A stretch of DNA of 64,000 bases from Candidatus Omnitrophota bacterium (GCA_022703055.1 JAKLEP010000002.1:22247-86246), one strand, 5' to 3'; counted from the first letter of the stretch, positions 13,979 through 55,474 are shown. Numbers and translations are program-made. The notes: generated by a model from the sequence alone, not told the origin.

Positions 13979-14689
13979 CTAAGTCAAGGAAAGGTTTTTT
14001 TCGATGAACTTAATAAGCTCTTCCTGAACGGAATAAGGCAAGTTCACAAATTCAACCCCCATACCCGGATGGAGATTATGCTGGATATCTTTATCAGACA
14101 GCCAGACGACTTTAGCATCAAGCTTGAATGTTTTATGCTCCGAGGGAAGATCAATTTTTAAAGTCACCTCATCCCCTAACTTGAATTGTTCACAACCAAA
14201 AATGTATGCGCCCACCGCACTCAAATCCAACAACTCAACCTTAAGGCAATGCGGGGTCCGGCTGTGTTTAGATAATAAATCAATCTGGATATCCAAAGGC
14301 AGCCGCTTAAACCTGCGGCGCATCTGCATTCTTTTAATATTTTCAATGACTCTGTCCTGCTTGAAACTTTTTATCGCTACTTCTTCTTGAGTATGGATAT
14401 CGATTACCTTATCAAGGCCTGCTACGGAAAGAATCTGGCGCACATGCATTGGGACATTCAAGAATTTCATCCTGCCTTTATTATTCAAGACTTCCTTGTA
14501 TGCCAAGGCAAGGGCCGAAACTCCCAGATAGTCGATAAATTCAACCTCTTCAAAATTCAACAAGATATCGTAATAGCCGTCTCTTAAGCAAGTGCCCACA
14601 ACCTCAACCAAATTGGCAGAGTCAGAGTCGATACGGCCGCCAATGTCTAAAATCACCACTCCTTTATCTGTCCTGGCTTTAATTTCCAT
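13979..14689 (-). CDS. STAS (anti-sigma-factor-antagonist-like) and PilZ fusion protein, putative c-di-GMP receptor
   Basis: N-terminal STAS: VVILDIGGRIDSDSANLVE…FEEVEFIDYLGVSALALAY. C-terminal PilZ-like: RRRFKRLPLDIQIDL… and …GMGVEFVNL…. Confidence 0.65.
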   Translation of the reverse strand: MEIKARTDKGVVILDIGGRIDSDSANLVEVVGTCLRDGYYDILLNFEEVEFIDYLGVSALALAYKEVLNNKGRMKFLNVPMHVRQILSVAGLDKVIDIHTQEEVAIKSFKQDRVIENIKRMQMRRRFKRLPLDIQIDLLSKHSRTPHCLKVELLDLSAVGAYIFGCEQFKLGDEVTLKIDLPSEHKTFKLDAKVVWLSDKDIQHNLHPGMGVEFVNLPYSVQEELIKFIEKNLSLT

Positions 14690-19723: not shown

Positions 19724-20149
19724 TTAAACTAAAAAGTAAAAAGAAAAAAGTAAAAACCAAAAGGCAAAAGTCAAAAGTCTTCTCCGATTCTCTTTCAGGG
19801 TTAAGATGCTCGAAGCTAAAATATTCGATAATTCTGTGGTCTCATTTAAAAGCTCTGTTATATTCTCGAACGGACCTTCGATAGAATCCCTAATTAACTC
19901 TAGCCAAAATTTACTCTCATTAGCTGATTTGAGAGCGTGGCGATAAAAATTAGAGAAATCTTTTTTAGAAGCAGAAACTTGAGCTTCTATAATATTAGCA
20001 CCAACAGAAGTTGCTGAACGTAAAAGCTGCTGAGCCATCACTTGCGATATATAGTCTTTAGGGATGCTTCTAAGAAACTTGATTATATCTGCGGAGTAAA
20101 GATAGCTTCGTTTTCTTAAATTATAAACCTTATTCTTTTTCTCTTCCAT
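19724..20149 (-). CDS. Four-helix-bundle protein (TIGR02436 / 23S rRNA intervening-sequence protein family), copy A
   Basis: …QLLRSATSVGANIIEAQVSASKKDFSNFYRHALKSANESKFWLELI… family signature. The C-terminal approximately 19 aa (NRRRLLTFAFWFLLFSFYFLV) are read out of the flanking AAAAGTAAAAAG repeat. Confidence 0.8.
   Translation of the reverse strand: MEEKKNKVYNLRKRSYLYSADIIKFLRSIPKDYISQVMAQQLLRSATSVGANIIEAQVSASKKDFSNFYRHALKSANESKFWLELIRDSIEGPFENITELLNETTELSNILASSILTLKENRRRLLTFAFWFLLFSFYFLV
19730..19779. repeat. Left terminal inverted repeat of four-helix-bundle cassette A
   Basis: AAAAAGTAAAAAGAAAAAAGTAAAAACCAAAAGGCAAAAGTCAAAAGTC is the imperfect reverse complement of 20150-20200. Confidence 0.6.
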
Positions 20150-20681: not shown

Positions 20682-22316
20682 TTATGGCTGCTGAATAACT
20701 TTATTATTTAAACAGCGGGATAAATATCCGCCGGTCAAAGCATCAATTGAGGCCGTCAGCTCTTCTAATCTCAAGGTCTCATCCAGCCTTTCGCTTGCCT
20801 CTTCAGGAGGTGAGATTAGAAGCTCTGTCTGAAGCCGACGGCGCTCAAAGTACAATCGTGTTACTTCATCTAAAATTGACTCCCTTAGTTCAACCATTAA
20901 TTTAGAACGGGAATCTATAGATGTCTGGTCCGGATTCCAAATCAGCTCACCCACATCCCAGCTTAATGACAATCCCCAATCCCTCGGACCAACAAATGCC
21001 CTTTCGTAGCTAGAAGATAGAGACGTTGCCACAGTCTTATCGTAATCTAAACTTACTGACGGCATAAGAGCAGCAAGCTGCGCGCGCCTGCGCCAGCTTT
21101 TTATTTTCCGTGGATCAACCTCTGCGTATCTTATCGCCTGTTTCTGGATTTCCTGAATAGAGGGCTCGTCCTTAAATACTTCTTGAGTATTTTTTTGCTC
21201 GTCTCGTTTCATTGCAGGTAAATCCCGGGACGAGCCCCTAAACACTCCTTCATCAGTTGCAGCCCAAAGATTCCTAGAGGAGTCCGTGGCTAGGAAATTA
21301 ATATTATTAGCGGTCATTCCCTTATAAAACTGTTGCCATTTACCACCGTTAAATTCAAAAACACCTTTTTCTGTACCAACAACTAAATTATTATTATCTA
21401 GAAATTGAATACATTTTATATTCTGACTTAACAATCCTCCTGAATTTAATCTCTGCCAGGATTCGCCGTCATCTTGGGAATAAAACAAACCTTCATCTGA
21501 GCTAAAATAAATATTACGAGAGTTCTTGTGATCGATTTTAATATCGGTTATGCGTGATGTTCCTTTTGATTCTTCGGCTGCATAATCGCTATCGCCATTA
21601 TTATTTTCCGGGCTCTCTTGGCCTGTTATGGAATATAATTTATCTTGTGAATCTAAATCCGAGCTTAAAACATATACGCCTTCGATAGTGGCGAGAAAAA
21701 TCTGCTCTGCGCCTGCGGCCATAGCGATAATTTCAATGGTGCCAAGCTTCCCTGATAATCTATCCCAAGTCTTGGCATTATCCCTCGTAAAAAATAATCC
21801 TTCTTTGGTGCCAAGAAGGATTATATCTTTAAGAATCAAAACCGTTTTGCAATAACGCTGCATTTCGTTTTTACCGCGAAAAATATTCTGCCAGCTTTTC
21901 CCCTCATTTCGGCTGATGAATAATCCATCGGCGGTCGCAGCGAATATATCCTGCGGGCAAGATCTATCTTGCGCAAGGTAATTAACTCCTCCAGATTTTG
22001 GAATATTTAGAATCTTCTTATAATATTTCCCCTGGTCATTTGAAACATAAAGAGCGCGGTCAGTACCGACAAAAAATTGATTCCTATCCTCAAAATCAAA
22101 TAATATACATTTAACATTCTTTTCCCTTAAGCCATCGGAAGAATCCTGCCATAAAATATTACTATCGGAACGGGTTATTACTAATAAACTTAAAATAAAA
22201 ACAAAGATATAGACAATGCCAGAAAGCAACCTATTATGTTTGAAATTTCGAATTGCAAACTTAAAAGTCAAAAGGAAAAAGTAAAAAGCACAAGTTAAAA
22301 TTAAAAAGTTTTTCAT
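20682..22316 (-). CDS. Membrane-anchored beta-propeller protein (BNR/Asp-box or Reg_prop-like repeats) with an unknown C-terminal domain
   Basis: 544 aa; repeated …G(K/E)(S/T)W(Q/D)…L… motifs (GKSWQNI, AKTWDRL, GESWQRL, LWAATDEGVF). The annotated N-terminus is encoded by the inverted-repeat DNA of cassette B, so the real start is probably internal. Confidence 0.55.
   Translation of the reverse strand: MKNFLILTCAFYFFLLTFKFAIRNFKHNRLLSGIVYIFVFILSLLVITRSDSNILWQDSSDGLREKNVKCILFDFEDRNQFFVGTDRALYVSNDQGKYYKKILNIPKSGGVNYLAQDRSCPQDIFAATADGLFISRNEGKSWQNIFRGKNEMQRYCKTVLILKDIILLGTKEGLFFTRDNAKTWDRLSGKLGTIEIIAMAAGAEQIFLATIEGVYVLSSDLDSQDKLYSITGQESPENNNGDSDYAAEESKGTSRITDIKIDHKNSRNIYFSSDEGLFYSQDDGESWQRLNSGGLLSQNIKCIQFLDNNNLVVGTEKGVFEFNGGKWQQFYKGMTANNINFLATDSSRNLWAATDEGVFRGSSRDLPAMKRDEQKNTQEVFKDEPSIQEIQKQAIRYAEVDPRKIKSWRRRAQLAALMPSVSLDYDKTVATSLSSSYERAFVGPRDWGLSLSWDVGELIWNPDQTSIDSRSKLMVELRESILDEVTRLYFERRRLQTELLISPPEEASERLDETLRLEELTASIDALTGGYLSRCLNNKVIQQP
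22263..22308. repeat. Left terminal inverted repeat of four-helix-bundle cassette B
   Basis: AAAGTCAAAAGGAAAAAGTAAAAAGCACAAGTTAAAATTAAAAAG is near-identical to the reverse complement of 22682-22731. Confidence 0.65.
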
Positions 22317-22681
22317 CTCTTTCCTTTCAGACTCAAAATGCTTGCAGCGAGAATATTGGATAATTCAATTGTTTCATCAGAGATTATTTTAGTTTTATCA
22401 AAAGGGACTCTATGAGAATCTAAAAGCAAAGAAAGCCAGAATTTGCTTTCATTTGCAGATTTTAATGAATGGCTATAAAAATTAGTAAAATCTTTTTTGG
22501 AACTTGAAGCTTGAGCTTCAATGATATTGGCACCTATTGATGTTGCGGAACGAAGAAGTTGCCTGCCAATTATTATTGAGATGTAGTCTTTGGGTAGATT
22601 TTCGATAAAATTTATAATATCAAGCGCATATAGGTAAGTGCGCTTTCTTAAATCATAAATTTTATGTCTTGGCTCTTCCAT
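22313..22681 (-). CDS. Four-helix-bundle protein (TIGR02436 family), copy B
   Basis: 122 aa; …RQLLRSATSIGANIIEAQASSSKKDFTNFYSHSLKSANESKFWLSLL…; paralog of copy A. Confidence 0.8.
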   Translation of the reverse strand: MEEPRHKIYDLRKRTYLYALDIINFIENLPKDYISIIIGRQLLRSATSIGANIIEAQASSSKKDFTNFYSHSLKSANESKFWLSLLLDSHRVPFDKTKIISDETIELSNILAASILSLKGKR

Positions 22682-23714: not shown

Positions 23715-24077
23715 CGAACTTATGGAGTTTGAAAAACGACATAAGTTCGTAGTCGGAATTTGACCCAGCACTAATTTTATGAATATATATTGGATTTATA
23801 TCTTAAAGAACAAAAATACTGGAGAGCCTTATTACGGATATACAAATAACTTAGACAGGCGTTTAAAAGAACATGATATTGATAATAAATGGAAATTTAT
23901 TGGTTGTGAAGGTTATGTCTCCGAATTAGATGCTAGGGAAAGAGAAAGAAAATTAAAACATTATGGTCAAGCACGAACCCATCTTAAGAACCGGCTTAGA
24001 AAATCATTCCAATAGTAAAATTAGTGCTGGGTTCAATTCGCCCAAGCGACTTATGTTCACTTTGTTCCATAAGTCGC
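23715..24077 (+). mobile_element. Hairpin-bracketed GIY-YIG mini-cassette (putative selfish/homing-endonuclease-like insertion)
   Basis: Layout: left hairpin CGAACTTATG-(15 nt)-CATAAGTTCG at 23715-23749; a 16-18-bp perfect inverted repeat ACCCAGCACTAATTTT / AAAATTAGTGCTGGGT abutting the start (23763-23778) and stop (24017-24032) of the GIY-YIG ORF; right hairpin GCGACTTATG-(12 nt)-CATAAGTCGC at 24046-24077. Confidence 0.45.
23779..24015 (+). CDS. Small GIY-YIG nuclease-domain protein (UPF0213/YhbQ-like)
   Basis: 78 aa; IYWIYILKNKNTGEPYYGYTNNLDRRLKEH matches GIY-x10-YIG…R…E. Confidence 0.75.
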   Translation: MNIYWIYILKNKNTGEPYYGYTNNLDRRLKEHDIDNKWKFIGCEGYVSELDARERERKLKHYGQARTHLKNRLRKSFQ

Positions 24078-24098
24078 GGGCTCATTGAAGGAGGAAAA

Positions 24099-24455
24099 AT
24101 GCCTAAATATAAGATTTTGATCTGTGATGATGAACTGGGTATCAGAGAATCACTAAAATTAATTTTAGAGAAGGATTATGAGATCATTGAAGCTACTAAC
24201 GGCAAAGATTGCCTGGAGAATTTAAAAAACAATCCCGTAGATTTAATCTTAATGGATATCAAAATGCCCAAGGCCAGCGGACTGGATATCCTAAAAGAAA
24301 TCAAATCAATTAATCCCGCCATAAAAGTAATCATGATCACAGGCTACAAGTCGGTCGAAACAGCGACAGAAGCCATCCGCGCCGGAGCTAGCGATTACAT
24401 CGTCAAGCCATTTTCGTCTAAGGATGTCTTGGAAGCAATTCGGAAAATCCTCTAA
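24099..24455 (+). CDS. Stand-alone response-regulator receiver domain (CheY-like)
   Basis: Start at MPKYKILICDDELG after a GAAGGAGG RBS. Phospho-acceptor context LILMDIKMP and the T/K motifs. Confidence 0.8.
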   Translation: MPKYKILICDDELGIRESLKLILEKDYEIIEATNGKDCLENLKNNPVDLILMDIKMPKASGLDILKEIKSINPAIKVIMITGYKSVETATEAIRAGASDYIVKPFSSKDVLEAIRKIL

Positions 24456-24504: not shown

Positions 24505-24891
24505 ATGAAACTACAATCGTATAAAGACCTCATTGTTTGGCAAAAATCCATAGAGCTGGTTATAGAAATTTATAATCTTACCAGATTATTCCCTAAAAGC
24601 GAAGTTTACGGATTGGTTTCTCAAATGAGGCGAGCTGCCATAGCTATTCCTTCTAATATCGCTGAAGGATATCGCAGAAAACACATAAAAGAATATATCC
24701 AGTTCCTCTACGTAGCAAATGGCTCAGCTTCTGAACTTGAAACACAAATTGATATCGCTAGAAAATTAGAAGAAACAATAGATTTGGATTATTCGAAGTG
24801 CGATAATTTAATTGCGGAAGTCTTAAAGATGTTGAACGTGCTGATTGCGAAACTTGAAACTAAACGCTACCCCCTCCACCCTATACCCTGA
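24505..24891 (+). CDS. Four-helix-bundle protein (TIGR02436 family), copy C
   Basis: 128 aa; …VSQMRRAAIAIPSNIAEGYRRKHIKEYIQFLYVANGSASELETQIDIARKLE… family signature. The stop lies 1 nt from the stop of the convergent HD-GYP gene. Confidence 0.8.
   Translation: MKLQSYKDLIVWQKSIELVIEIYNLTRLFPKSEVYGLVSQMRRAAIAIPSNIAEGYRRKHIKEYIQFLYVANGSASELETQIDIARKLEETIDLDYSKCDNLIAEVLKMLNVLIAKLETKRYPLHPIP
24876..24890. repeat. Right inverted repeat of four-helix-bundle cassette C
   Basis: CCACCCTATACCCTG lies inside the last codons of copy C and pairs with 24486-24504. Confidence 0.5.
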
Positions 24892-24892: not shown

Positions 24893-26938
24893 TTAACCAA
24901 ACTTCTTCTTCAACTCATCCATTACTTTTTTCAGCACACCATCATTATATAACTCGATAAAGGCATCGGCGACTACCGGATCAAATTGAATCTTACGGAA
25001 CTTTTTGATTTCGTTCATCGCTTCTTCTATTGATAAGCCTTTTCGGTAGGGCCTGTCGGTAGTCATGGCATCAAAGGCATCAGCCACGCGGATAATCCTG
25101 GCAAAAATGTGGATTGCATCTCCCTTTTGCTTATCAGGATAACCAGAGCCGTCGTAATTTTCATGATGATGCACCACACCCTGGATAATGTCTTCCCCGA
25201 ACCATTCCTTTAAGGGGCCGAGGATTTCGATACCGCGGGTGGGATGCTCCTTAATCTTGGCAAATTCCTCATCGTTAAGCGCGGCCGGCTTCAAAAGAAT
25301 ATTATCCGAGATTCCGACTTTTCCCAAATCATGCAGCTGGGCGGTCCAGTGAAGCGCGCTGATGGAGTTGGGTATGGAATGGATCAAGCGCTCCAGTTTA
25401 TTTCCTAACAACATTGAATATTGCGACACTCTTTCGGTGTGGCCGCGGGTGTAATGATCGCGGGCTTCCAAAGTCTCCAGCAATGATTTCTGCGAGGAGA
25501 CAATCAAACGGATTTTTTCGTTCTTCAATAATAATCCGGCGATGGCGCGGCCGGTCTGATTGGCCAAAGTCTGGAAGGCCTGGAGGTCCTGAGCAGTGTA
25601 GATTTCGTTAGTGATTTTATTACCCAGGTTCATAATACCAACCATCTCATCTTCGCAGAAACTGGGAACGCAGATTTCCACGCCCAAGATGGCCATTTCG
25701 CTTTCCACGGATTCCAGGAATTTTCTTTCGTGCGTAGTAAGATCTTTATTCTGCAGGTCATGCATAATCTGGCCATAGACTGCCGGCTTCTTCTCGTCTT
25801 TTAGATAGGCGACCAACGGGCTGTGGATTGAAAGCAACAATCCCAGCTCTAATTTGGGACGGTCTTTTTTGCGATAAACACAGGACATAAGCGCATAGGC
25901 ATTTTTCTGGTCATTCAGGATAAAAACAGCGGTGTGATCCAAACGCGTAAATGATGACACGTCTCTTACGATAAACGTCGCCATTTCTCTAACGTCTCTT
26001 GCCCTCGCCGTCCTCTCCGCCTCTTTCTCCAGCATCGGCCTGTAGGCGAATTTCTTGGAAAGGTCAGATTCATTCATACGAAGAATAAATTTTATAAATC
26101 TAAATAATGCAAATGCTATCAGAGCTGAAAGCAAAACAGGTACAGTTAACCAAGCTGGACCTAATTTCGGGGAAAGAATTGGCTGAATATAAGAAAGAGC
26201 AATATAAAGCAAGGCTACTGGAATTATAGCACCTATGGAAATGAAAGTTGTCTTCTTGACTAAAATTTCAATATCCATAAGGTGATGACGAACTATGCTA
26301 TAACTAATTATAGCTATATAAATTGCTCCAAATAAATAACCAAACGGATAAATTGCTATTCCATAATTAGGAAAAAAATCTACGGACGCGGAGCTATAAA
26401 TAGTAAATGCTAATAATACATATTTTATTTGGGTTCGTTCCGGAGGTGTAAGTTTCTTGTTTTTAAATAATAAAAATGATGCCAAGAGAATGCATGCGTA
26501 GCTTACCGAACCAATAAAAAATATTAAGAAAACTGGATGCAGAAAACCTGCTATTGGATAATACCCCCAGAAATATAATCTAAAATCTTTTACAACATAA
26601 CTGGTTCCCCATATTAAAAAACTAAATAATATAGAAAACAAATAAAATAATGAAATAATCTTTTGTAGACTTTTTATTTTTAGAACCTCTATGGTACAAT
26701 GTAATCCAGCAACACATATAAAAGCAATAGCTGTGTACCCAATTTTTAACCAGAAAGCAGCTATAGTTTTATCTGTTTGACGATAAGCGATCCCATATGC
26801 GAATAACCAAATACATGTAACTAAACTTAAAAAGAAAAAAACACGGTTAGTGACGTGTTTAGAATTCCTAGATAAAATAAAGAATCCAAGTATCAATAGC
26901 GCTAATGAGATAATAATTTGTGGAAACGAATAATACAT
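24893..26938 (-). CDS. Polytopic membrane sensor with GAF and HD-GYP phosphodiesterase domains
   Basis: 681 aa; at least 7 N-terminal TM helices, a GAF-like middle region, then HD-GYP motifs HDLGKVGISD and HHHENYDGSGYPD. Confidence 0.75.
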   Translation of the reverse strand: MYYSFPQIIISLALLILGFFILSRNSKHVTNRVFFFLSLVTCIWLFAYGIAYRQTDKTIAAFWLKIGYTAIAFICVAGLHCTIEVLKIKSLQKIISLFYLFSILFSFLIWGTSYVVKDFRLYFWGYYPIAGFLHPVFLIFFIGSVSYACILLASFLLFKNKKLTPPERTQIKYVLLAFTIYSSASVDFFPNYGIAIYPFGYLFGAIYIAIISYSIVRHHLMDIEILVKKTTFISIGAIIPVALLYIALSYIQPILSPKLGPAWLTVPVLLSALIAFALFRFIKFILRMNESDLSKKFAYRPMLEKEAERTARARDVREMATFIVRDVSSFTRLDHTAVFILNDQKNAYALMSCVYRKKDRPKLELGLLLSIHSPLVAYLKDEKKPAVYGQIMHDLQNKDLTTHERKFLESVESEMAILGVEICVPSFCEDEMVGIMNLGNKITNEIYTAQDLQAFQTLANQTGRAIAGLLLKNEKIRLIVSSQKSLLETLEARDHYTRGHTERVSQYSMLLGNKLERLIHSIPNSISALHWTAQLHDLGKVGISDNILLKPAALNDEEFAKIKEHPTRGIEILGPLKEWFGEDIIQGVVHHHENYDGSGYPDKQKGDAIHIFARIIRVADAFDAMTTDRPYRKGLSIEEAMNEIKKFRKIQFDPVVADAFIELYNDGVLKKVMDELKKKFG

Positions 26939-26949
26939 ATTTTTAGTAA

Positions 26950-28425
26950 TTAAAGTCCAATTTCTTTATATTTCCATTGTTTTCCGAGGTCCCCAAGTAT
27001 AATTCTTGCTGCTCTTCTACCAGAGAAACTAACTACTGGGATACCTCCTGAAGGAACAAATTCTCCCGTATACCAATGCCCTGCAGCATATAATCCTTTA
27101 ATTGAACAACGTTGTTTAATTTTATATAATTTTGTCCTTTCAAAATCTGGGAGCCACCCTAGACAAGCTCCGTTGGTATTAAGGGTAAATCTTTCAAAAG
27201 TTATAGGGGTAGCAACAAATTTCTTTTCAATATTATTCTTCAAATTTGGGATTATTTTGTTTGCCAAATCAACAATTAAACCAGCAATTCTATCTTTGTT
27301 ATTCAACCAAAATTCTGGAGATTCGTAGTTCGCAAGAATATAAAGACCAACGCTCGTATGAGAATTATAGCACTGTTCAGGATCGTGTAAAGAAGGAAAA
27401 GACATCATGAGATAACGCAAATCATCTTTATTAAATATTCTCTTTGTATCAAACATAGTTTCATCAATATTATAATCCGAGAAATACAAAATATTTGCTG
27501 GATTATCCAAAGCCGATTGCATATCGATATTAAGACCGGCATATACCACGAACATCGACGGCGACCTCACTAGATAATTTATTTTATCTAATTCATCTGT
27601 TTTTACATTTAAAAGGCTAGAGAAGGTTTCATGCGCATCAGCATTAGTAACTATAACATCCGCACGATACTGCTCGCCATTTTCCAACTCAACACCACAA
27701 ACAGAATTATTATCATTTAGAATTCTGGCGACTCTAGCATTTAATTTCATATCGCTACCACCAGTTCTAATAAATTGAGTTAAAAGATTAGGATACGATT
27801 GACTACCTCCATAAGGATAATATCCTGGATCCATTACATACTCTCTAAACATAGCAATACAAGCTAATGCTAGACTTTTATCTGCATGTGCCCCTATATT
27901 CCATATTGATATTGCATTAAGTATTGCTTTTATCTTTTTGTCTTCAAAAAACTCATCTAAAACACTACGAAATGTCATTTTCTTTATTTTTGGATAAACT
28001 GTAAGGAAGAAATCTTTTTGGCTAACAAAGTCAAAAAAACGTTTGATATTTTTCTCTTGTTGCGGAAATTTATCTCTAAACTCGTTAATTGTTAGAGCTG
28101 GATCTGATCTTAAGCATATATCTCCATCTGGTGTTATAATTCTTTCAACCGGATCAAACTGATGGACCTTTAATAAATTAGCAATTTCTAATTCATCTAA
28201 AATTTTACCTAAAATCCCTTTTTTCAATGACCCTAAGTAATGCACCCCAATATCGAACTTGTAGGCACCTAACTCAAGCGATGCGCAACATCCACCAGGT
28301 TTATCGTTTTGTTCTAAGACCAATATTTTTAAACCAGACTTAATAAGGTAACAGGCACAAATAAGTCCTCCTACTCCCGCCCCAATAATTATTGCATCAT
28401 ATTTGTTTGGAACTTTAACGCTCAT
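26950..28425 (-). CDS. FAD-dependent oxidoreductase of the phytoene-desaturase (CrtI/amine-oxidase) superfamily
   Basis: 491 aa; N-terminal dinucleotide fold YDAIIIGAGVGGLICACYLIKSGLKILVLEQNDKPGGCCAS. Confidence 0.7.
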   Translation of the reverse strand: MSVKVPNKYDAIIIGAGVGGLICACYLIKSGLKILVLEQNDKPGGCCASLELGAYKFDIGVHYLGSLKKGILGKILDELEIANLLKVHQFDPVERIITPDGDICLRSDPALTINEFRDKFPQQEKNIKRFFDFVSQKDFFLTVYPKIKKMTFRSVLDEFFEDKKIKAILNAISIWNIGAHADKSLALACIAMFREYVMDPGYYPYGGSQSYPNLLTQFIRTGGSDMKLNARVARILNDNNSVCGVELENGEQYRADVIVTNADAHETFSSLLNVKTDELDKINYLVRSPSMFVVYAGLNIDMQSALDNPANILYFSDYNIDETMFDTKRIFNKDDLRYLMMSFPSLHDPEQCYNSHTSVGLYILANYESPEFWLNNKDRIAGLIVDLANKIIPNLKNNIEKKFVATPITFERFTLNTNGACLGWLPDFERTKLYKIKQRCSIKGLYAAGHWYTGEFVPSGGIPVVSFSGRRAARIILGDLGKQWKYKEIGL

Positions 28426-29489
28426 CTTGTCTTTCGTTTTATAAAATTACAATCTACTGAATATTTCAATAATCTTAAAAATGTATTTTCGTCAAATCGT
28501 GGGATTTCAAAATTTAAGCTCCTTAAACCTTGCATTGTTTTTATTGACGAAATAGATGTACTGGGATTGAAGGTAAAAATTGTATTTTCGAGAAGTCTCC
28601 TTTGGATAGCAGACAAGTTACCAATCTTGAATTCTTCTCTTCTAACAAGTTTTGGCATTTTATATCCAAGATATTTACTGGCAATATAAATCATCTCTTC
28701 AAATAAAATAGTGGTTTCATGGAAAGGATGGTAGGTACAATTCTTTTCTTTAGAAAATTCATTTATTAATAAAATTGCATTAACTAATGAATCTACGCAT
28801 ATAATGTTAGAAGGGACATCCTTAGCGGGATAAACGTCAAATATCTCCATATTAAATAAGTGTATTGCTTGAAATATGCTTTGAAAAGAAGGCGTCTTCC
28901 CAGAAGAAGATTCCCCAAGCACAATGGGAGGACGATAGATATCGATCCATAAACCTTTCTTTCTGAACAAATCAATTTGCTTTTCTGCAAGGAATTTGGT
29001 TTTTTCATATGAAGTATTGAAAGACTGCCCCATATCTAAACTATCTTCCATAAACTTACCTTGATAATCACCGCAGACATATACAGTGCTGAAATAATTT
29101 ACTTTGCGTAATCGCCCTTCAGATATTTTCTCGGCAAAAGATAAAATATTAAAAGTACCATCGACATTGACTTGTTTAAGCGATAGAAAACCTTCTCTAA
29201 GGTTAGTTCCCGCGGCGCAGTGAAAGATTTCATCTATTTGTCCTCTTAAACGTAAAGTATCTTGGCTGTTTATCTCCAAATTCGATTTTCTAATATCGCC
29301 ATTAATAATTTCAAAATTATTTCGAATTTTTGGCAAAGAGCGCTTGTTCCAGAATTCTAAACAGTTGAGAATATTTTTAGGAGAATCTTTACGAACCAAA
29401 CAAAATACCTTATATCCTTTCAGCAATAAAGTTTGCAAAAGATATGATCCTATAAAACCTGTTCCGCCTGTTAAAAAAATAGTTTTCAT
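28422..29489 (-). CDS. NAD(P)-dependent reductase of the thioester-reductase / fatty-acyl reductase (male-sterility NAD-binding) SDR type
   Basis: 355 aa; MKTIFLTGGTGFIGSYLL Rossmann motif and catalytic Y-x3-K (YEKTK). Confidence 0.65.
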   Translation of the reverse strand: MKTIFLTGGTGFIGSYLLQTLLLKGYKVFCLVRKDSPKNILNCLEFWNKRSLPKIRNNFEIINGDIRKSNLEINSQDTLRLRGQIDEIFHCAAGTNLREGFLSLKQVNVDGTFNILSFAEKISEGRLRKVNYFSTVYVCGDYQGKFMEDSLDMGQSFNTSYEKTKFLAEKQIDLFRKKGLWIDIYRPPIVLGESSSGKTPSFQSIFQAIHLFNMEIFDVYPAKDVPSNIICVDSLVNAILLINEFSKEKNCTYHPFHETTILFEEMIYIASKYLGYKMPKLVRREEFKIGNLSAIQRRLLENTIFTFNPSTSISSIKTMQGLRSLNFEIPRFDENTFLRLLKYSVDCNFIKRKTR

Positions 29490-29585
29490 TTCTTTCTAAA
29501 ACAGCAAAATATATTCATAGAATTTATAATACTTTATTTCCTGATAACTCAACTGCAAACCTCGTTCCTTCGTTTATTTTACTTT

Positions 29586-30815
29586 CTACTTTTGTACTTC
29601 CACAATTTTTTTAAAAACTAAGCACGCATTGTTTCCCCCGAACGCGTATGAATTATTGAAAGCTATATTTACCTCTGCTTTGCGAGAATGATTTGGCACA
29701 CAATCTACATCACACTCCGGATCCGGAGTCTGGTAATTTATCGTCGGGGCAATTACGCCTTCTTTTATCGTCAGACAGCAGGAAATCGCCTCAATTGCCG
29801 ATGCTGCGCCCATAGTGTGTCCAAGCATTGATTTGATTGAACTTATAGGAATCTCTTTATATTTTGCGCCAAAAACTTTCTTAATTGCCGAACATTCGGT
29901 TTTATCATTCTGCACGGTTCCGGTTCCGTGCGCGCTGATATAATCTACATCCTCAATTTTGATACCTGCCTCTTTTATCCCTCGCCTCATACATTCCACG
30001 ATTCCTTCTTCTTTGGGCGCGGTCATATGATAGGCATCACAGGATAAACCATAGCCAAGAATCTCGGCATAAATTGTCGCTTTTCTTTTTAAGGCACTGT
30101 CTAATGTTTCCAATAATAGCATTCCGGCGCCTTCGCCGACCAGCATTCCTTCGCGGTTTAAATCAAACGGACGGCAGACTTCCGGGGCCATGGCATAAAG
30201 CCGGCTAAAACCGACCAAATTAACCCGGGAAAAAGCATCCACACCGCCTGCCAGCATAACATCTGCTTTGCCAGATCTGATTAGATCAAAGGCATAGCCG
30301 ATAGAATAATTTCCTGCAGAACAGGCATTAGCAAACATGAAACTATCAACTTTTAATTGCAGTTCATTGGCGAGGTTTCCGACGATATTATTAGTGGGAA
30401 ATAAAATTACGGTTTTATGGCCAATATCTTTTTCGCCCTTGTCTACCCAAAGCTTATCCATCTCTTCTAATATCTGAGCCTCGCCCATAGTAGTTCCAAG
30501 GCAAACGCCCATTTTTGCTTTGTCTATCTTTTTGATATTTAATCCTGCGTCTTCTAAAGACAGGCGAGCAGCCGCGAGCGCCATCTGTGAGGCGCGGCCC
30601 ATGTGTTTGAGCTTTCTTTTATCGATAAACTCCTCTGACTTGAAATTCTTGACCTCGCCGCCAAAGTGTCGTTCGTAGGCAGATGTATCAAAGGCTTCAA
30701 TCTTGCTTATTCCTGATTTACCGGCGATAAGGTTTCGCCAGAAATCAGCTTTGCCAATGCCGATCGAGCTTACCACGCCTAGACCAGTTATAACAACTCT
30801 TCGATTATTCTTCAT
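29586..30815 (-). CDS. fabF: 3-oxoacyl-ACP synthase II
   Basis: 409 aa; RRVVITGLGVVSSIG…, active-site ACSAG, HGTGT, NSYAFGGNNA motifs. Confidence 0.9.
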   Translation of the reverse strand: MKNNRRVVITGLGVVSSIGIGKADFWRNLIAGKSGISKIEAFDTSAYERHFGGEVKNFKSEEFIDKRKLKHMGRASQMALAAARLSLEDAGLNIKKIDKAKMGVCLGTTMGEAQILEEMDKLWVDKGEKDIGHKTVILFPTNNIVGNLANELQLKVDSFMFANACSAGNYSIGYAFDLIRSGKADVMLAGGVDAFSRVNLVGFSRLYAMAPEVCRPFDLNREGMLVGEGAGMLLLETLDSALKRKATIYAEILGYGLSCDAYHMTAPKEEGIVECMRRGIKEAGIKIEDVDYISAHGTGTVQNDKTECSAIKKVFGAKYKEIPISSIKSMLGHTMGAASAIEAISCCLTIKEGVIAPTINYQTPDPECDVDCVPNHSRKAEVNIAFNNSYAFGGNNACLVFKKIVEVQK

Positions 30816-31024
30816 TCTTTTCTGCGATCACTCTTCTGTGAATTATACCTGACCTTCTCGGAAATCCACTGATCAATCATCTTACGATGAAAGCGCCAGT
30901 CCGAGCCGAATTTAAAGGCTGGGATCTTACCTTCCCTGGCATATTTATAAATCGTCGCCGGATGGACATCCAGATACGCCGCCACGTCCCTTAAATCCAT
31001 TATCTCTTTACTTTTATTAGCCAT
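30812..31024 (-). CDS. Excisionase-family (HTH_17, MerR-superfamily) DNA-binding protein
   Basis: 70 aa; LRDVAAYLDVHPATIYKYAREGKIPAFKFGSDWRFHRKMIDQWI is a typical HTH_17 helix-turn-helix. ATGA overlap with fabF. It occupies the slot where acpP/fabG normally sit. Confidence 0.65.
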   Translation of the reverse strand: MANKSKEIMDLRDVAAYLDVHPATIYKYAREGKIPAFKFGSDWRFHRKMIDQWISEKVRYNSQKSDRRKE

Positions 31025-31116
31025 AAATTTTCCTCCTTAAAATTTTAAGCAAATCTTCTAAATTACAAAAAATCATATGTTATCATATGCTATGCTAAGC
31101 TAAATTGTGTTATCTT

Positions 31117-31145
31117 AATATATCTTAAATAGAAAAATTTGTCAA
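31117..31145 (-). promoter_or_regulatory. Sigma70-like promoter for the HTH-fabF unit
   Basis: Minus strand reads TTGACA-N17-TATATT; the 5'UTR contains CATATGATAACATATGAT repeats. Confidence 0.4.
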
Positions 31146-31189
31146 TGATTATTTGTACCTGAATTGAATTTTGGTTGGTTTTCCGACGA

Positions 31190-32110
31190 TTATACTGCGA
31201 GGTTTTCGATATCCTGAGGCTTCTCTAAATTGAAGACTTTGAGCTTTGAATCAATGCGCCTAAGCATGCCTTTTAAGATTTGGCCGGGCCCGATCTCTAT
31301 GAATTCAGTAACGCCCTGGCCTGCCATATAGCGCACTGATTCCTCCCAAAGCACCGAGGCGCTGACCTGGCGCACAAGATTCGCCTTGATTTCTTCGGGC
31401 TTAATCTCCGGCTTGGCAATGACATTGCTGACAACCGGAATTTGCGCCGGGTTAATCTTGGATTTATTCAATAATGCAGATAATTTCTCTCCGGCAGGAT
31501 TCATATAGTAGGAATGGAACGCTCCGCTTACCTCTAAGACTATTGCCTTGAAACCTTGTGCCTTGACTGCCTCAACGGTCTTATCGATATCAACAGCTTT
31601 TCCTGAAACTACCACTTGTCCCGGACAATTTAAGTTGGCAACATAAGTCGCGCAATCTTTACAGATCGCTTTTACTTTCTCAAGGTCCATGCCCAAAATC
31701 GCCGCCATCTTTCCGGGAGTGCTGCGGGCATCCTCCTCCATATATTCGGCGCGCTGCCTGACGATTTTCAAGGCATCTTCAAAACTGAAAACTTCTGACG
31801 CCACTAAAGCCGAATATTCGCCCAGGCTTAAACCTGCAGTAAATTTTGGTTTAAAATTTTTTGATTTAGGATGGCTTTTAAAGGCTTCCAGGACAGCGAC
31901 GCTTAAGGTGAAAATTGCCGGCTGGCAGTTAATCGTGGATTTGAGTTGTTCTTGCGGGCCTTGGAAACAAAGTTTAGTTAGGCTGAATCCCAGGACTTTA
32001 TCGGCTTTATCAAATACTGATTTGGCTTGGGGGGAAATTCGATAGATTTCTTTTCCCATGCCAACATACTGCGAGCCTTGACCGGGGAAAATGTAAGCTA
32101 TATTTTTCAT
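31190..32110 (-). CDS. fabD: Malonyl-CoA:ACP transacylase
   Basis: 306 aa; IFPGQGSQYVGMG and GLSLGEYSAL active-site Ser motif. Confidence 0.9.
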   Translation of the reverse strand: MKNIAYIFPGQGSQYVGMGKEIYRISPQAKSVFDKADKVLGFSLTKLCFQGPQEQLKSTINCQPAIFTLSVAVLEAFKSHPKSKNFKPKFTAGLSLGEYSALVASEVFSFEDALKIVRQRAEYMEEDARSTPGKMAAILGMDLEKVKAICKDCATYVANLNCPGQVVVSGKAVDIDKTVEAVKAQGFKAIVLEVSGAFHSYYMNPAGEKLSALLNKSKINPAQIPVVSNVIAKPEIKPEEIKANLVRQVSASVLWEESVRYMAGQGVTEFIEIGPGQILKGMLRRIDSKLKVFNLEKPQDIENLAV

Positions 32111-32215
32111 AAATAAGTTATTTCAGTTAATGCAGTTATTTCTGTTAGGTCAGTTCTATTCCTTAACTAACGTAACTGGCTCAACTGACTAAACTGTCCT
32201 AACATTTCTTTATTT

Positions 32216-33193
32216 TTACCATTTAATAACTATGGAGCCCCAGACCAGTCCTCCGCCAAAGGCAACCAGGACAACGATATCGCCTTTTTTGATTTTTCCG
32301 TCGCGGAAGGCTTCGGTAAGCGCGGTGGCGGTTGAGGCAGATGACATGTTTCCGTAGCGGGCGATATTCATATAAATCTTATCTTCGGGGACTCCGATTC
32401 TCTTGGCCATGGCCAAAAGTATGCGGATATTAGCCTGATGAGGAATAACGCAATCAATGTCTTTCCAGCTAAGACCCACCTTTTCCAAGGCAATCTTGGT
32501 GGCTTCGCCCAGGAGTTTTACGGCATGCTTAAAGACTTCATTACCCTGCATCTTGATAGTGTGTAATTTTTCATCCACGGTTTGATGAGTCGCTGGATTT
32601 CTCGAGCCGCCGGCAGGAAGAAGCAATAAATCCCCCAATTCTCCGTCGCTGGCAAGATAAGTAGAAAGTATTCCGTTTTCTTTAACAGGAGCTAAAACGC
32701 AGGATCCTGCTCCGTCTCCAAAAAGGACACAGGTGCTTCTATCGGTCCAATCGGTAATCCTAGATAGAACCTCGGTTCCAACAACCAAAGCATTTTTATA
32801 AACGCCGTTAGCGATAAATTGCTGGGCGATAGTTATCCCATAGATGTATCCGGCGCAGGCGGCCGAGATATCGAAACTCGCGGCCTTTTTGGCGCCTAAT
32901 GCTTTTTGCACCCAACAGGCAGTGGAAGGAAACTGCGTATCCGGGGTGATGGTAGCGACAATAATCAAATCTAAATCTTCGGGTTTTAATTTGGCTTGGG
33001 CGAGCGCTTCTCTGGCGGCATTTACTGCCAGATCGCTTGCGGCCTGGGACTTATCGGCGATCCTTCTCTCTTTTATCCCGGTGCGGGTGGTAATCCACTC
33101 ATCGGAAGTATCAACCATTTTCTCCAGGTCCTGATTGGTGAGCTTTTTCTCAGGAACATACATCCCAAGGCCGATGATTCCTACGTTTTTCAT
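32216..33193 (-). CDS. fabH: 3-oxoacyl-ACP synthase III
   Basis: 325 aa; GIIGLGMYVPEKKLTNQDLEKMVDTSDEWITTRTGIKERR…; Cys-His-Asn triad context (AACAGY, HQAN, GGG). Confidence 0.9.
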   Translation of the reverse strand: MKNVGIIGLGMYVPEKKLTNQDLEKMVDTSDEWITTRTGIKERRIADKSQAASDLAVNAAREALAQAKLKPEDLDLIIVATITPDTQFPSTACWVQKALGAKKAASFDISAACAGYIYGITIAQQFIANGVYKNALVVGTEVLSRITDWTDRSTCVLFGDGAGSCVLAPVKENGILSTYLASDGELGDLLLLPAGGSRNPATHQTVDEKLHTIKMQGNEVFKHAVKLLGEATKIALEKVGLSWKDIDCVIPHQANIRILLAMAKRIGVPEDKIYMNIARYGNMSSASTATALTEAFRDGKIKKGDIVVLVAFGGGLVWGSIVIKW

Positions 33194-34179
33194 AGCGCCT
33201 TTATTTCCTCGATGATTTTTGCATTAACATTCTTTTCAATCTCTTCCTTGGCTACGCGGATTGCGTTTTTAATAGCCTTGGCGCTGGAACGGCCGTGTCC
33301 GATAATTACAATACCATTAACCCCCAGAAGCAGCGCTCCTCCGTATTCGGAATAATCCATCTGTTTCCTGAAACGCTTAAAACCTCTCATCATCAAAAGC
33401 GCGCCTAGCTTGCTCCAGATATTGCTGTATATCTGCCGCTTTAAAAACTCTGCAATTACTTCGGCCAATCCTTCTGCTATTTTTAACGCGATGTTGCCTA
33501 CAAATCCATCGCAGACAATGCAATCACATTTTCCGGAAAATATATCTTTGCCCTCAACATTGCCGATAAAGTTAATCTTGGCTTTTTCTAAAACCGCATA
33601 GGTCTCTTTGACATATTCCGGACCCTTTGTTTCCTCTTCGCCGATATTAAGAAGTCCCACGCGAGGATTTGGGATATTTAAGACGTTACGAAAATATGCT
33701 GTGGCCATTACGGCGTACTGCTGCAGATGAATCGGTTTAGGATTAATATTCGCCCCCACATCGACCAATAAAGCCCTGCCGGTTAAAGAAGGGGTAATTA
33801 TTGCGATTCCCGGCCTCTCTATTCCAGATAGAAGACCTAAACTCAATGTGGCAGCGCAAACCACAGCTCCGGTATTTCCAGCGCTGACCATGGCATCGGC
33901 CCTATCGTCCTTAGTCATCTCAATGGCTTTAACTATAGAGGAATCTCTTTTTCTTCTGACACTCGTCGCCGCCGACTCGTCCATTTCAATAACTTCTGAT
34001 GCTTCTTGGATACTGATACGATTGGAAGGATACTTGTATTTTTTAAGCTCTTCTTCGATGGCGGCTTTTTTCCCGACCAGAATCACTTCGATATCATATT
34101 CTTTTACCGCCATTACTGCGCCGCTGACAATCGCACCCGGCGCATGATCTCCACCCATTGCATCTACGGAAATACGCAT
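33190..34179 (-). CDS. plsX: Phosphate acyltransferase
   Basis: 329 aa; MRISVDAMGGDHAPGAIVSGAVMAV…. Confidence 0.9.
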   Translation of the reverse strand: MRISVDAMGGDHAPGAIVSGAVMAVKEYDIEVILVGKKAAIEEELKKYKYPSNRISIQEASEVIEMDESAATSVRRKRDSSIVKAIEMTKDDRADAMVSAGNTGAVVCAATLSLGLLSGIERPGIAIITPSLTGRALLVDVGANINPKPIHLQQYAVMATAYFRNVLNIPNPRVGLLNIGEEETKGPEYVKETYAVLEKAKINFIGNVEGKDIFSGKCDCIVCDGFVGNIALKIAEGLAEVIAEFLKRQIYSNIWSKLGALLMMRGFKRFRKQMDYSEYGGALLLGVNGIVIIGHGRSSAKAIKNAIRVAKEEIEKNVNAKIIEEIKAL

Positions 34180-34182
34180 AAT

Positions 34183-34386
34183 TTATTCCTTTTTCTTTTT
34201 CTCTTCTTTGGTCTTGATTTCAACCACGACCCTGTCTTTGTAAAATCCGCATATAGGACAAATCTGATGCGGAGGCTTCAAGGTCTTACACTGAGGGCAA
34301 ACCACCAGATTCGGCGCCTCAAATTTCCAATGAGTTCTGCGTTTTCTTCCACGTTGCTTAGAATGTCTTCTTTTCGGTAATGGCAT
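34183..34386 (-). CDS. rpmF: 50S ribosomal protein L32
   Basis: 67 aa; MPLPKRRHSKQRGRKRRTHWK… with CPQC…CPIC zinc ribbon. Confidence 0.9.
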   Translation of the reverse strand: MPLPKRRHSKQRGRKRRTHWKFEAPNLVVCPQCKTLKPPHQICPICGFYKDRVVVEIKTKEEKKKKE

Positions 34387-34403
34387 TGTTCCTTCCTTTC
34401 AGA

Positions 34404-34814
34404 CTAAATCTTACAGTTACATTTTTCCAGATTCAAATTCTTTCCGCATTTAGGGCATAAACCTTTGCAATCCGGCTTGCACAGGGATTTGACCGGGAAA
34501 TCCAGGATTAATTCTTCGCGCAGTTCCTGGGCAAGGTCTATAACTTCCTGGCCCTGATCCGTTTCATAAACAAAACGGAATTTTTTATCTATTTTCGTGG
34601 GACAGGCAGCTAAACATCTAGAGCAGAAAACATCAGCTTCGCTGTTTATCCTGGCATTAACCGTGACGGCGTTAATCCCCTTCTCGATGAATGCCTTGAT
34701 TTCAATGGGCTTCTTAAAAACTACCTCTTTTGAAACAATATCTAAATCTGATGGCATTAAGTTCTCGCTTAATTCCAATCCTTCGGCGGGAACTTGCCGT
34801 AAATTTATTTTCAT
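34404..34814 (-). CDS. yceD: YceD/DUF177 family protein (23S rRNA accumulation protein)
   Basis: 136 aa; C-terminal CKPDCKGLCPKCGKNLN motif. Conserved position upstream of rpmF-plsX. Confidence 0.8.
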   Translation of the reverse strand: MKINLRQVPAEGLELSENLMPSDLDIVSKEVVFKKPIEIKAFIEKGINAVTVNARINSEADVFCSRCLAACPTKIDKKFRFVYETDQGQEVIDLAQELREELILDFPVKSLCKPDCKGLCPKCGKNLNLEKCNCKI

Positions 34815-47139: not shown

Positions 47140-47157
47140 ACTTACCTTTATAATATA

Positions 47158-50155: not shown

Positions 50156-50161
50156 TTTAAA

Positions 50162-50284: not shown

Positions 50285-50333
50285 AAAACTAATATTTCAA
50301 ATAACTACTTTGCGAAAAAAGACCTTTAAAAGT

Positions 50334-53308
<2,975 letters not shown>

Positions 53309-53420
53309 CTTGACCACAAATAAAAACCGTCTTTTTCCGCTATATGTAGTTATCAAAGAACCAATCGCAAAGTTACGTGCGAATAAAATTCTTTCTAAAA
53401 GATCTCTTTATGATAATTTC

Positions 53421-53888: not shown

Positions 53889-55474
<1,586 letters not shown>

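Follow-up and report, generated by a model that had tools for sequence, protein, structure and literature searches.

A ketosynthase, thioester reductase and CrtI-like flavoenzyme module linked to a seven-transmembrane HD-GYP sensor and a strain-variable cassette in Candidatus Omnitrophota

Introduction

Anammox bacteria carry a gene cluster, Cluster I (kuste3603-3608), that encodes amxACP, amxFabZ, amxFabF2, amxFabF-mut, a phytoene dehydrogenase-like protein (PDH) and a B12 radical-SAM protein (PMC4790861). It has been described as exclusive to ladderane producers (PMC10139942; bioRxiv 10.64898/2026.05.19.726425). Clusters combining type II fatty acid synthase (FAS-II) and phytoene dehydrogenase genes were noted in Desulfotalea and Geobacter by Rattray in 2009 (PMC2649909), and antiSMASH "ladderane" biosynthetic gene clusters (BGCs), with no assigned function, have been reported in metagenome-assembled genomes (MAGs) of Omnitrophota and other phyla and are expressed in Omnitrophota MAGs. 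The present work concerns a related module in a 64,000-nucleotide stretch of DNA from a Candidatus Omnitrophota bacterium (GCA_022703055.1 JAKLEP010000002.1:22247-86246), hereafter the window. All genes of this module lie on the minus strand and encode, in order, an HTH_17 protein, a ketosynthase (KS), a short-chain dehydrogenase/reductase (SDR), a CrtI-family flavoenzyme and a sensor that joins a seven-transmembrane (7TM) domain to GAF and HD-GYP domains.

In comQXPA and agr loci, variation in the signal-making genes goes with variation in the membrane half of the receptor, and the polymorphism of ComP and AgrC is N-terminal. Loci of the comQXPA kind have been described as polymorphic signal-plus-receptor loci (PMC4408185). 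In the diffusible signal factor (DSF)/Rpf system, a fatty-acid signal is coupled to a kinase, a receiver (REC) domain and an HD-GYP domain (PMC4159695, PMC3609779).

Relative to Cluster I, the window shares a KS with 56% identity to amxFabF2 and a PDH that falls in a sister clade. It differs in having no B12 radical-SAM gene, which was found in L008 only, and in carrying a thioester reductase and a 7TM-GAF sensor in its place; the acyl carrier protein (ACP), FabZ and chain length factor (CLF)-like partner have also been lost from the window version. Like Cluster I, fuller relatives outside the anammox bacteria have a dedicated ACP, a FabZ of the Ape type and a CLF-like KS that has no catalytic triad and falls with amxFabF-mut. 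Here and below, the labels L003-L137 denote stretches fetched around homologues from genome, metagenome and assembly collections, onto which the window proteins were then mapped, and percent identities in locus comparisons are amino-acid identities to the window proteins.

The antiSMASH "ladderane" BGCs and the clusters of Rattray belong to the same gene class, FAS-II paralogues with an amine-oxidase/CrtI-like flavoenzyme, but the reports on them include no thioester reductase, no 7TM-GAF sensor with REC and HD-GYP and no variable cassette. A literature search found no description of alternative thioester reductases, of such a sensor or of such a cassette, and nothing relevant on sensor association or on Omnitrophota lipids. 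Non-anammox FAS-II/PDH clusters were already known; the reductase alternatives, the link to sensor, REC and HD-GYP, and the variable cassette appear to be new here.

By analogy, the closest functional precedent may be the DSF/Rpf system of Xanthomonas (RpfF, RpfC and the REC-HD-GYP protein RpfG), which resembles some relatives of the window module, where putative FAS-II-diverting genes are clustered with those for a sensor kinase, a receiver and an HD-GYP protein. Unlike that system, the module contains no RpfF-type crotonase in domain searches, would release its product by thioester reduction rather than hydrolysis and has a HisKA_7TM-GAF sensor input; REC and HD-GYP are separate proteins in the relatives, and the fused sensor of the window bypasses kinase and REC. 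The pherotype loci comQXPA of Bacillus and agrBDCA of Staphylococcus likewise combine hypervariable synthesis genes and a hypervariable receptor input domain with a conserved cytoplasmic half and conserved flanks, but signals there are peptides and outputs are kinases, whereas a lipid signal and hydrolysis of cyclic di-GMP (c-di-GMP) are proposed here.

The window ketosynthase is of amxFabF2 type

The first-pass annotation of this DNA had labeled the KS gene fabF, but comparison with related enzymes does not place the encoded protein with the canonical FabFs. The best match in the Protein Data Bank (PDB) was 9s5h_B (502 bits, 56% identity), the ishigamide polyene KS came next (358 bits), and no canonical FabF exceeded 347 bits. 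Identity to E. coli FabF was 39.5%. The KS scored 448.4 bits against the FabF equivalog model TIGR03150, below the cut-off of 493.75, and passed the subfamily model PRK07314 (433 versus a cut-off of 387 bits). The Cys-His-His triad and the Phe gate were intact, in the columns of C164, H304, H341 and F401 of the E. coli enzyme, whose motifs were located by pattern. In a neighbor-joining tree, the window KS lay among amxFabF2-like enzymes and apart from the single canonical FabF, which served as outgroup.

PDB entry 9s5h holds two different KS chains. The gene layout of L008, ACP-FabZ-KS-KS-PDH-B12 radical SAM, is exactly that of anammox Cluster I, as taken from PMC4790861, and its KS is 71% identical to 9s5h_B (668 bits). 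Granatino et al., in a 2026 preprint (bioRxiv 10.64898/2026.05.19.726425), report the ishigamide KS as the nearest structural neighbor of amxFabF2. Because the L008 KS is 71% identical to this chain and the ishigamide KS is the next neighbor, as in the preprint, we infer that 9s5h is the amxFabF2/amxFabF-mut heterodimer of those authors and that chain B is amxFabF2. On sequence grounds, the window "fabF" is an amxFabF2-type KS and not a canonical FabF.

No CLF-like KS partner, dedicated ACP or FabZ was found in the window. A second KS lacking the triad was present in L004, L006, L009, L020, L026, L084, L087, L088 and L089, grouping with amxFabF-mut in each, so the KS/CLF-like pair, recently presented as peculiar to anammox bacteria, is widespread outside them and not confined to ladderane producers. 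The preprint explains amxFabF heterodimerization by charge in a helix-loop-helix and an interacting helix (bioRxiv 10.64898/2026.05.19.726425). Net charge in these elements was considered as a predictor of KS homodimerization and set aside, there being no pattern that split KSs with a CLF partner from those without. Comparison of the FabZ proteins of the relatives with PDB entries was similarly uninformative, as amxFabZ-type and canonical FabZ entries scored alike.

A probable specialized lipid module recurs across phyla

A KS together with a PDH (in a few loci, a reductase only) and a HisKA_7TM-GAF sensor recurred in at least 22 other loci, with a thioester reductase in most of them. These loci belong to Omnitrophota, Planctomycetota, Nitrospirales and Elusimicrobiota and to one MAG labeled Rhodocyclaceae. 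Where both could be read, identity between the window KS and the KSs adjoining CrtI-like genes in these other phyla was 51-64%, and the KS gene often overlapped that of the PDH. The sensor encoded downstream had HisKA_7TM and GAF domains and a length of ∼715-790 residues. More complete loci also encode a dedicated ACP, a FabZ of the Ape type, FabG and another KS. The same gene arrangement as in the window recurred in independent assemblies (JGI, ENA and Logan), which shows that the noncanonical layout is not an assembly artifact, the possibility against which the first-pass annotation had set it.

As that annotation had noted, acpP and fabG are missing from the window: tblastn with E. coli and B. 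subtilis probes detected no acpP, fabG, fabZ or fabI in the 64 kb, probes for ACP, FabG, FabZ, CLF, acyl-ACP reductase (AAR)-like, nitroreductase and B12 radical-SAM proteins from related clusters had no match there, and Pfam searches of the other large open reading frames (ORFs) of the window gave no additional FAS gene. Since PlsX and FabD require an ACP, acpP is expected to lie elsewhere in the genome. Relative to the canonical fab operon plsX-fabH-fabD-fabG-acpP-fabF, the window shares the first three genes, with yceD-rpmF upstream, but has the HTH_17 gene and the amxFabF2-type KS instead of fabG and acpP; the relatives L083 and L054 carry (HTH_17-)FabZ-KS at that place.

The combination of KS, acyl-thioester reductase and CrtI-like flavoenzyme holds as a conserved specialized lipid module, and it is highly probable that this is a FAS-II/PDH system of a "ladderane-like" kind whose product is released reductively, and not a set for ordinary housekeeping FAS. 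The earlier suggestion of a specialized lipid set is upheld in this respect by the conserved module; the products it named, an aldehyde, an alcohol or an unsaturated lipid, stay at the level of prediction.

The occurrence of the KS/CLF/ACP/FabZ/PDH core in several non-anammox phyla narrows the ladderane-specific step to the radical-SAM gene. The non-anammox PDH homologues offer a more tractable route to PDH function, and the expressed "ladderane" BGCs of non-anammox MAGs gain a first testable function.

Two types of reductase occupy the same slot

The SDR matched PF07993 with 149.9 bits against a cut-off of 20.1 (E 1e-43), and inspection of its translation reveals the motifs TGxxGxxG (GGTGFIGS) and YxxxK (YEKTK). 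It matched the N-terminal half of PRK07201, scored 133 bits against TIGR01746, below the cut-off of 213, and had the MxaA terminal reductase as its best PDB match. It is predicted to be a stand-alone acyl-thioester reductase, an extended SDR of the NAD_binding_4 type. PF07993 and both motifs place it alongside the cyanobacterial AAR, the NAD_binding_4 fatty acyl reductases (FARs) and the reductase (R) domains of MxaA, AusA and carboxylic acid reductases (CARs); it differs from them in being a stand-alone protein of 355 residues and in falling below the TIGR01746 cut-off.

In other loci, the slot of the SDR is taken by an AAR/PigE-N-like acyl-ACP reductase, a protein of ∼370 residues with a full-length match to the cyanobacterial acyl-ACP reductase and to the N-terminal reductase part of PigE. 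Among the sensor-linked loci read, those with a reductase encoded either the NAD_binding_4 SDR or the AAR/PigE-N-like protein, never both, and neither type was found in the stretches read of L026, L089 and L101. The existence of two mutually exclusive reductase types argues for reductive release of acyl-ACP as a conserved step. A homologue of the WbuX-like PP-loop amidotransferase was also encoded alongside the AAR-like reductase in L020 (6682-7809) and L087 (5278-6348), the two copies being 64% identical.

The flavoenzyme belongs to a FAS-II-associated family

The two families anticipated by the first-pass annotation, PF07993 in the SDR and PF01593 in the flavoenzyme, were both recovered by profile searches. 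The flavoenzyme scored below the cut-off of every carotenoid model, including TIGR02734 (CrtI; 133.8 versus 238.1 bits) and CrtISO (135.6 versus 586.9 bits), with CrtI, CrtISO and CrtD still being its best family matches. Its structural model, a high-confidence fold of the CrtI/CrtD type (pLDDT 92.9), aligned in Foldseek with 4rep (TM-score 0.80, E 9e-33) and 4dgk (E 4e-25), and the translation contains the N-terminal FAD-binding motif GxGxxG...E as IIGAGVGG...LE.

Approximately 60 full-length homologues of 30-88% identity were found in metagenomes, and identity to the PDH of the Cluster-I-type locus L008 was ∼30%. In a neighbor-joining tree, PDHs adjoining a 7TM sensor formed one clade. Its sister clade held the anammox PDH with copies from Thermodesulfobacteriota, Acidobacteriota and Chthoniobacterales, these also lying near KS pairs. 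CrtI-family members below ∼29% identity had no such module context. By sequence, the flavoenzyme is a member of the FAS-II-associated "PDH" family and a relative of kuste3607.

In L084 (9403-9999), L085 (444-1040) and L087 (7948-8529), the PDH gene is directly preceded by a gene of the nitroreductase (FMN) family, and in L003 (1548-2147) such a gene is found upstream at a distance of one gene. The encoded protein could reduce the flavoenzyme; the window has no gene of this kind.

The sensor has a predicted link to c-di-GMP hydrolysis

The HD-GYP domain of the window sensor scored 113.6 bits against PF13487, and its motifs are intact in the translation: the HD motif (LHDLGK), HHExxDGxGYP (HHHENYDGSGYP) and DAxDAxxxxRxYR. 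The domain is a predicted c-di-GMP phosphodiesterase. The first-pass annotation had called apparent co-transcription of the enzymes with such a phosphodiesterase unusual. The linkage is not peculiar to this genome: sensors with HisKA_7TM and GAF domains, most often histidine kinases, are encoded after the enzymes in at least 22 other loci.

In eight loci (L083, L054, L087, L088, L101, L103, L108 and L111), the sensor is a 7TM-GAF histidine kinase and HD-GYP is encoded downstream as a protein of its own, with or without GAF. The genes between kinase and HD-GYP were read in L083, L087, L088 and L054: L083, L087 and L088 have a stand-alone REC there, and L054 has a 124-residue unannotated ORF that is 36% identical to a REC and probably encodes one. 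The one-protein 7TM-GAF-HD-GYP version occurs in the window, L086, L046, L093 and L094. Alignment with the L083 kinase covers residues 2-525 of the window sensor at 32% identity, and alignment with the GAF-HD-GYP protein of L054 covers residues 403-667 at 44%. An origin of the sensor by deletion and fusion is only partly supported: its overall identity is higher with fused paralogues outside such modules (41-44%) than with the kinases (26-32%), and an equally likely origin is replacement by a paralogue whose input architecture is the same.

A stand-alone REC gene convergent with the sensor gene was considered as a remnant of a kinase-REC-HD-GYP triad. This was rejected, since the encoded REC is orthologous to that paired with a second 7TM kinase (HK547) in the relatives; HK547 is absent from the window, which leaves the window REC an orphan. 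The second 7TM kinase, of ∼545 residues, is encoded at different places in the relatives, inside the cassette described below in L086 (7266-8909) and L094 (395-2038) and beside its receiver in L093 (12571-14193, minus strand) and L083 (15458-17104, minus strand). The window also encodes a second HD-GYP protein (HAMP-HD-GYP, 17921-19312), 42.5% identical in its HD-GYP part, and a STAS-PilZ protein (13979-14689), so that several c-di-GMP components lie within 15 kb.

Reductase, flavoenzyme and 7TM domain form a strain-variable cassette

The base composition of the module is not uniform. The SDR gene, the PDH gene and the first ∼900 nucleotides of the sensor gene have a GC content of 0.28-0.36 and a third-position GC content (GC3) of 0.24-0.27 (0.27 for the SDR and 0.24 for the flavoenzyme), compared with 0.41-0.49 and 0.42-0.51 for the KS and the other fab genes. 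This AT-rich block extends from ∼29615 to ∼26015. Low GC3 of the SDR and CrtI-like genes (0.20-0.31) persists in L086, L083, L046 and L054, with a weaker contrast in L054.

The relatives vary across the same interval. In L086, which carries the same type of cassette (SDR 90%, PDH 88%), the flanks are 58-95% identical to the window, sensor residues 260-681 are 95% identical and residues 1-200 are 91% identical. In L046, with flanks of 59-91%, the same two parts of the sensor are 91 and 43% identical, PDH and SDR are 31 and 39% identical and their order is swapped. L094 (flanks 58-85%) has 91 and 34% for the sensor parts and encodes an AAR-like reductase with a PDH of 34%, and L093 (flanks 57-86%, one gene 37%) has 81 and 28% and encodes a single AAR-like reductase and no PDH. 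Overall, strains with 81-91% identity in the C-terminal part of the sensor share only 24-43% in the 7TM part (residues 1 to ∼220), and the breakpoint near residue 220 coincides with the end of the Pfam 7TM domain. In the distant L083, the flanks are 47-58%, the PDH 53% and the 7TM part 52% identical, from which it follows that the window cassette type predates the split from that genome. A metagenome scan with the conserved sensor part returned three close relatives only. The interval from ∼26278 to 29585 behaves as an allelic cassette between the conserved KS and the conserved GAF-HD-GYP part. This is the most striking property of the locus and lay beyond the reach of the first-pass annotation.

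Recent horizontal transfer is an unlikely cause of the low GC content, because low GC3 persists where the cassette proteins are only 27-53% identical. A diversity-generating retroelement, an idea that arose from weak bAvd-like matches on neighboring genes, was also rejected: whole enzyme families are replaced, and there was no reverse transcriptase among the annotated ORFs (∼20 ORFs in 1-19 kb were unannotated).

Proposed mechanism and alternatives

The features described are best accommodated by a model in which a side branch of FAS-II would release a modified fatty aldehyde or alcohol that is read by the adjacent 7TM domain, with c-di-GMP hydrolysis as output. This model is put forward tentatively, at a little under an even chance, and we infer its substrates, its product and the pairing of ligand with sensor. 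The products of plsX, fabH and fabD provide malonyl-ACP and consume acyl-ACP. The KS would draw acyl-ACP and malonyl-ACP from this housekeeping system (PlsX, FabH and FabD being encoded just upstream, and ACP, FabG and FabZ elsewhere) and make a dedicated acyl-ACP. The PDH flavoenzyme would then alter the chain, most likely by introduction, isomerization or saturation of a C=C bond, and the thioester reductase would free it from ACP as a fatty aldehyde, possibly converted on to the alcohol. Within the membrane, the HisKA_7TM domain of the adjoining protein would sense this hydrophobic product, and the protein would act via GAF on its HD-GYP domain, the predicted c-di-GMP phosphodiesterase. Most relatives would instead couple this input domain to a histidine kinase, followed by receiver and HD-GYP as proteins of their own.

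If SDR, PDH and 7TM domain are exchanged as an allelic cassette, strains would make and sense different variants in the manner of pherotypes. A further-reaching reading is lipid-based, strain-specific cell-cell or self-signaling in Omnitrophota and in the Planctomycetota, Nitrospirota and Elusimicrobiota relatives, in which the cassette would comprise an acyl-ACP reductase, usually a CrtI-like flavoenzyme and a matching 7TM input domain and would convert each strain's own aldehyde or alcohol variant to a c-di-GMP signal. The anammox bacteria would have recruited the KS/CLF/ACP/FabZ/PDH core and added the B12 radical-SAM protein for ladderanes. This extended proposal is possible but doubtful. 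Were it correct, most of "Cluster I" would not be ladderane-specific, and an uncultured phylum would have, in a signal-receptor cassette of this kind, a lipid counterpart of the peptide-based pherotype systems with c-di-GMP turnover as its output.

Several points weigh against the signaling model. Every step is predicted from the genes, the KS and PDH trees are neighbor-joining trees without support values, and the available cassette variants number five, all from metagenome assemblies. The set in the window is reduced, without the ACP, FabZ, FabG and CLF-like KS of the fuller clusters, so the window KS may behave differently from those or double as the housekeeping FabF. The anammox proteins kuste3336 and kuste3607 failed to replace CrtI in E. 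coli (PMC4790861), and the literature of 2023-2026 still calls the role of PDH unresolved (PMC10139942; bioRxiv 10.64898/2026.05.19.726425). L093 retains KS, AAR-like reductase and sensor without a PDH, which is thus dispensable in that locus. Putative co-transcription of the module genes would have to extend across the 96-nucleotide KS/SDR gap. Distant fused 7TM-GAF-HD-GYP proteins (41-44% identity) are not beside lipid genes, which implies that the sensor family as a whole is not dedicated to the module. Finally, a recombination hot spot, or a surface lipid under diversifying selection with the 7TM domain as hitch-hiker, could also account for the hypervariable AT-rich block.

Remodeling of membrane lipids is a rather unlikely alternative that nevertheless survives best. 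The module would then make a structural lipid, for instance a fatty alcohol destined for ether lipids or an uncommon unsaturated chain formed independently of O2, and the 7TM-GAF protein would sense membrane state like DesK. The position of the module directly after plsX-fabH-fabD fits this account, as do the glycolipid and acyltransferase genes downstream in L087. The anammox KS/PDH relatives are thought to make membrane lipids, including ether-linked alcohols, and amxFabZ and amxFabF prefer C6-C8, near the usual branch point of anaerobic unsaturated fatty-acid synthesis (bioRxiv 10.64898/2026.05.19.726425). However, a general sensor of membrane state is not expected to swap its transmembrane domain together with the enzymes yet keep its cytoplasmic part, and phospholipid acyl chains need no thioester reductase. 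Moreover, where a DNA-binding regulator of lipid genes would be expected, the output consists of c-di-GMP turnover or a stand-alone REC.

Low GC3 and allelic replacement resemble what is seen at O-antigen and capsule loci. It is conceivable, if distinctly unlikely, that the product is a surface or host-interaction lipid under diversifying selection, with phages, predators or hosts targeting either the product or the exposed 7TM loops and with the N terminus of the sensor as a linked passenger. The persistence of low GC3 alongside the allelic replacement favors this reading, and Omnitrophota are reported to be ultra-small with host-dependent traits (PMC10066038). The downstream breakpoint, by contrast, coincides precisely with the 7TM boundary within a single reading frame, which a functional pairing explains more easily than linkage alone, and the cassette contains no glycosyltransferase or export genes.

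It is improbable that the KS is a housekeeping FabF, the sole elongating synthase of the organism, and that the SDR, CrtI-like and HD-GYP genes are independent neighbors. The KS gene does occupy the expected place of fabF with a host-like GC content, its product exceeds the PRK07314 cut-off, and the 96-nucleotide gap together with the insertion in L086 shows it to be separable from the cassette; but in the tree the enzyme sits among amxFabF2-like KSs, at a distance from the single canonical FabF, KS-PDH adjacency, often with overlap, is kept across at least four phyla, and thioester reductase and 7TM sensor co-occur in most loci read. The amxFabF2-type KS may, in addition to its proposed role in the signaling model, serve housekeeping elongation in the window lineage.

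A carotenoid or isoprenoid pathway with a true CrtI/CrtISO, or ladderane synthesis in Omnitrophota, would fit the CrtI fold, the CrtI/CrtISO/CrtD family matches and the homology of KS and PDH to anammox Cluster I but is very improbable, given carotenoid model scores far under the cut-offs, no crtB or crtE among the annotated window ORFs, the lack of CrtI activity of the anammox homologues, the absence from the window of the B12 radical-SAM protein, CLF, amxACP and amxFabZ of Cluster I, and a reductase and sensor in place of Cluster I genes in the non-anammox loci.

Gene arrangement and promoter region

Coordinates of the module and its surroundings are given in Table 1. Those of the first-pass annotation were all correct, and its description of a canonical yceD-rpmF-plsX-fabH-fabD order followed by a gap, of an HTH_17 gene whose stop overlaps the next start and of a short interval before the sensor gene was confirmed from the sequence. 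The 4-nucleotide overlap that it assigned to the reductase SDR was likewise found and is that of the SDR/CrtI junction. The upstream fab genes exceed the equivalog cut-offs of TIGR00128, TIGR00747 and TIGR00182. Within the module, an ATGA joins the stop of the HTH_17 gene with the start of the KS gene, another is shared by the SDR stop and the start of the CrtI-family gene, and the interval between the CrtI-family gene and the sensor gene is 11 nucleotides. The KS/SDR spacer contained no terminator-like site. In L086, an extra 7TM histidine kinase gene is inserted between KS and SDR.

Table 1. Positions in the window of the module, its promoter region and adjoining genes
Feature	Position	Strand	Remarks
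Upstream block yceD-rpmF-plsX-fabH-fabD	31190-34814	-	Context, outside the variable module
yceD	34404-34814	-	Upstream housekeeping gene
rpmF	34183-34386	-	Upstream housekeeping gene
plsX	33190-34179	-	Upstream housekeeping gene
fabH	32216-33193	-	Upstream housekeeping gene
fabD	31190-32110	-	Upstream housekeeping gene
fabD/HTH_17 gap	31025-31189	-	165 nt
Sigma-70-like promoter TTGACA-N17-TATATT	31145-31117	-	Within the fabD/HTH_17 gap
Direct repeat CATATGAT-AA-CATATGAT	31089-31072	-	Each copy with a CATATG palindrome
HTH_17 gene	30812-31024	-	70 aa; PF12728
KS gene	29586-30815	-	409 aa; amxFabF2-type by sequence
KS/SDR spacer	29490-29585	-	96 nt; upstream edge of the AT-rich variable cassette
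SDR gene	28422-29489	-	355 aa; PF07993 (NAD_binding_4)
CrtI-family flavoenzyme gene	26950-28425	-	491 aa; PF01593, PF13450
7TM-GAF-HD-GYP sensor gene	24893-26938	-	681 aa; PF16927, GAF, PF13487
Sensor variable half	26278-26938	-	HisKA_7TM, residues 1 to ∼220; GC ∼0.31
Sensor conserved half	24893-26277	-	Further transmembrane helices, GAF, HD-GYP
Stand-alone REC gene	24024-24455	+	Convergent with the sensor gene

The gap upstream of the HTH_17 gene had been credited with a good promoter. The hexamers are present, and the site outscores every other sigma-70 match within 11 kb (11 of 12 positions), but sites of this class are no commoner in the region than in shuffled sequence (28 found versus 29.1 ± 5.5); the site is real but carries little weight as evidence of a promoter. 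It is also kept in L086, a relative too close for this conservation to say much. A good match to a ribosome-binding site, AAGGAGG, precedes the HTH_17 gene. The direct repeat listed in Table 1 lies ∼28 nucleotides downstream of the −10 hexamer, with only its first copy retained in L086, and could be an operator for the HTH_17 protein.

The HTH_17 protein is excisionase/MerR-like (PF12728, 58 bits, E 1e-15; TIGR01764, 43 bits versus a cut-off of 28.8) and presumably has a regulatory role. Its orthologues lead the module in L086, L083 and L093, and the copy in L009 precedes a KS-like gene. Homologues were found in two further sensor/HD-GYP loci, before AAR-like reductase genes in L103 and directly before a GAF-HD-GYP gene in L137.

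Neighboring genes

At a distance of 11 kb upstream of the module, the minus strand carries an RND efflux operon (41856-47595) for MarR, an outer-membrane factor, an HlyD-type adaptor and an AcrB-type pump; export of a lipid product by this system is conceivable, if purely speculative. A complete 16S-tRNA(Ile)-tRNA(Ala)-23S-5S operon is present at 50160-55476 on the same strand.

Genes for "23S rRNA intervening sequence protein" (IVP; PF05635, weakly bAvd-like) occur in the window at 19724-20149, 22313-22681 and 24505-24891. They shift position within the operon, lying between fabH and fabD in L083 (5301-5696) and between HTH_17 and KS in L086 (5517-5909), and behave like mobile insertions. Small GIY-YIG genes are also found at differing positions, at 23779-24015 in the window, at 1826-2206 in L086 (between rpmF and plsX) and at 17852-18106 in L093, a relocation that suggests homing-endonuclease-like mobility.

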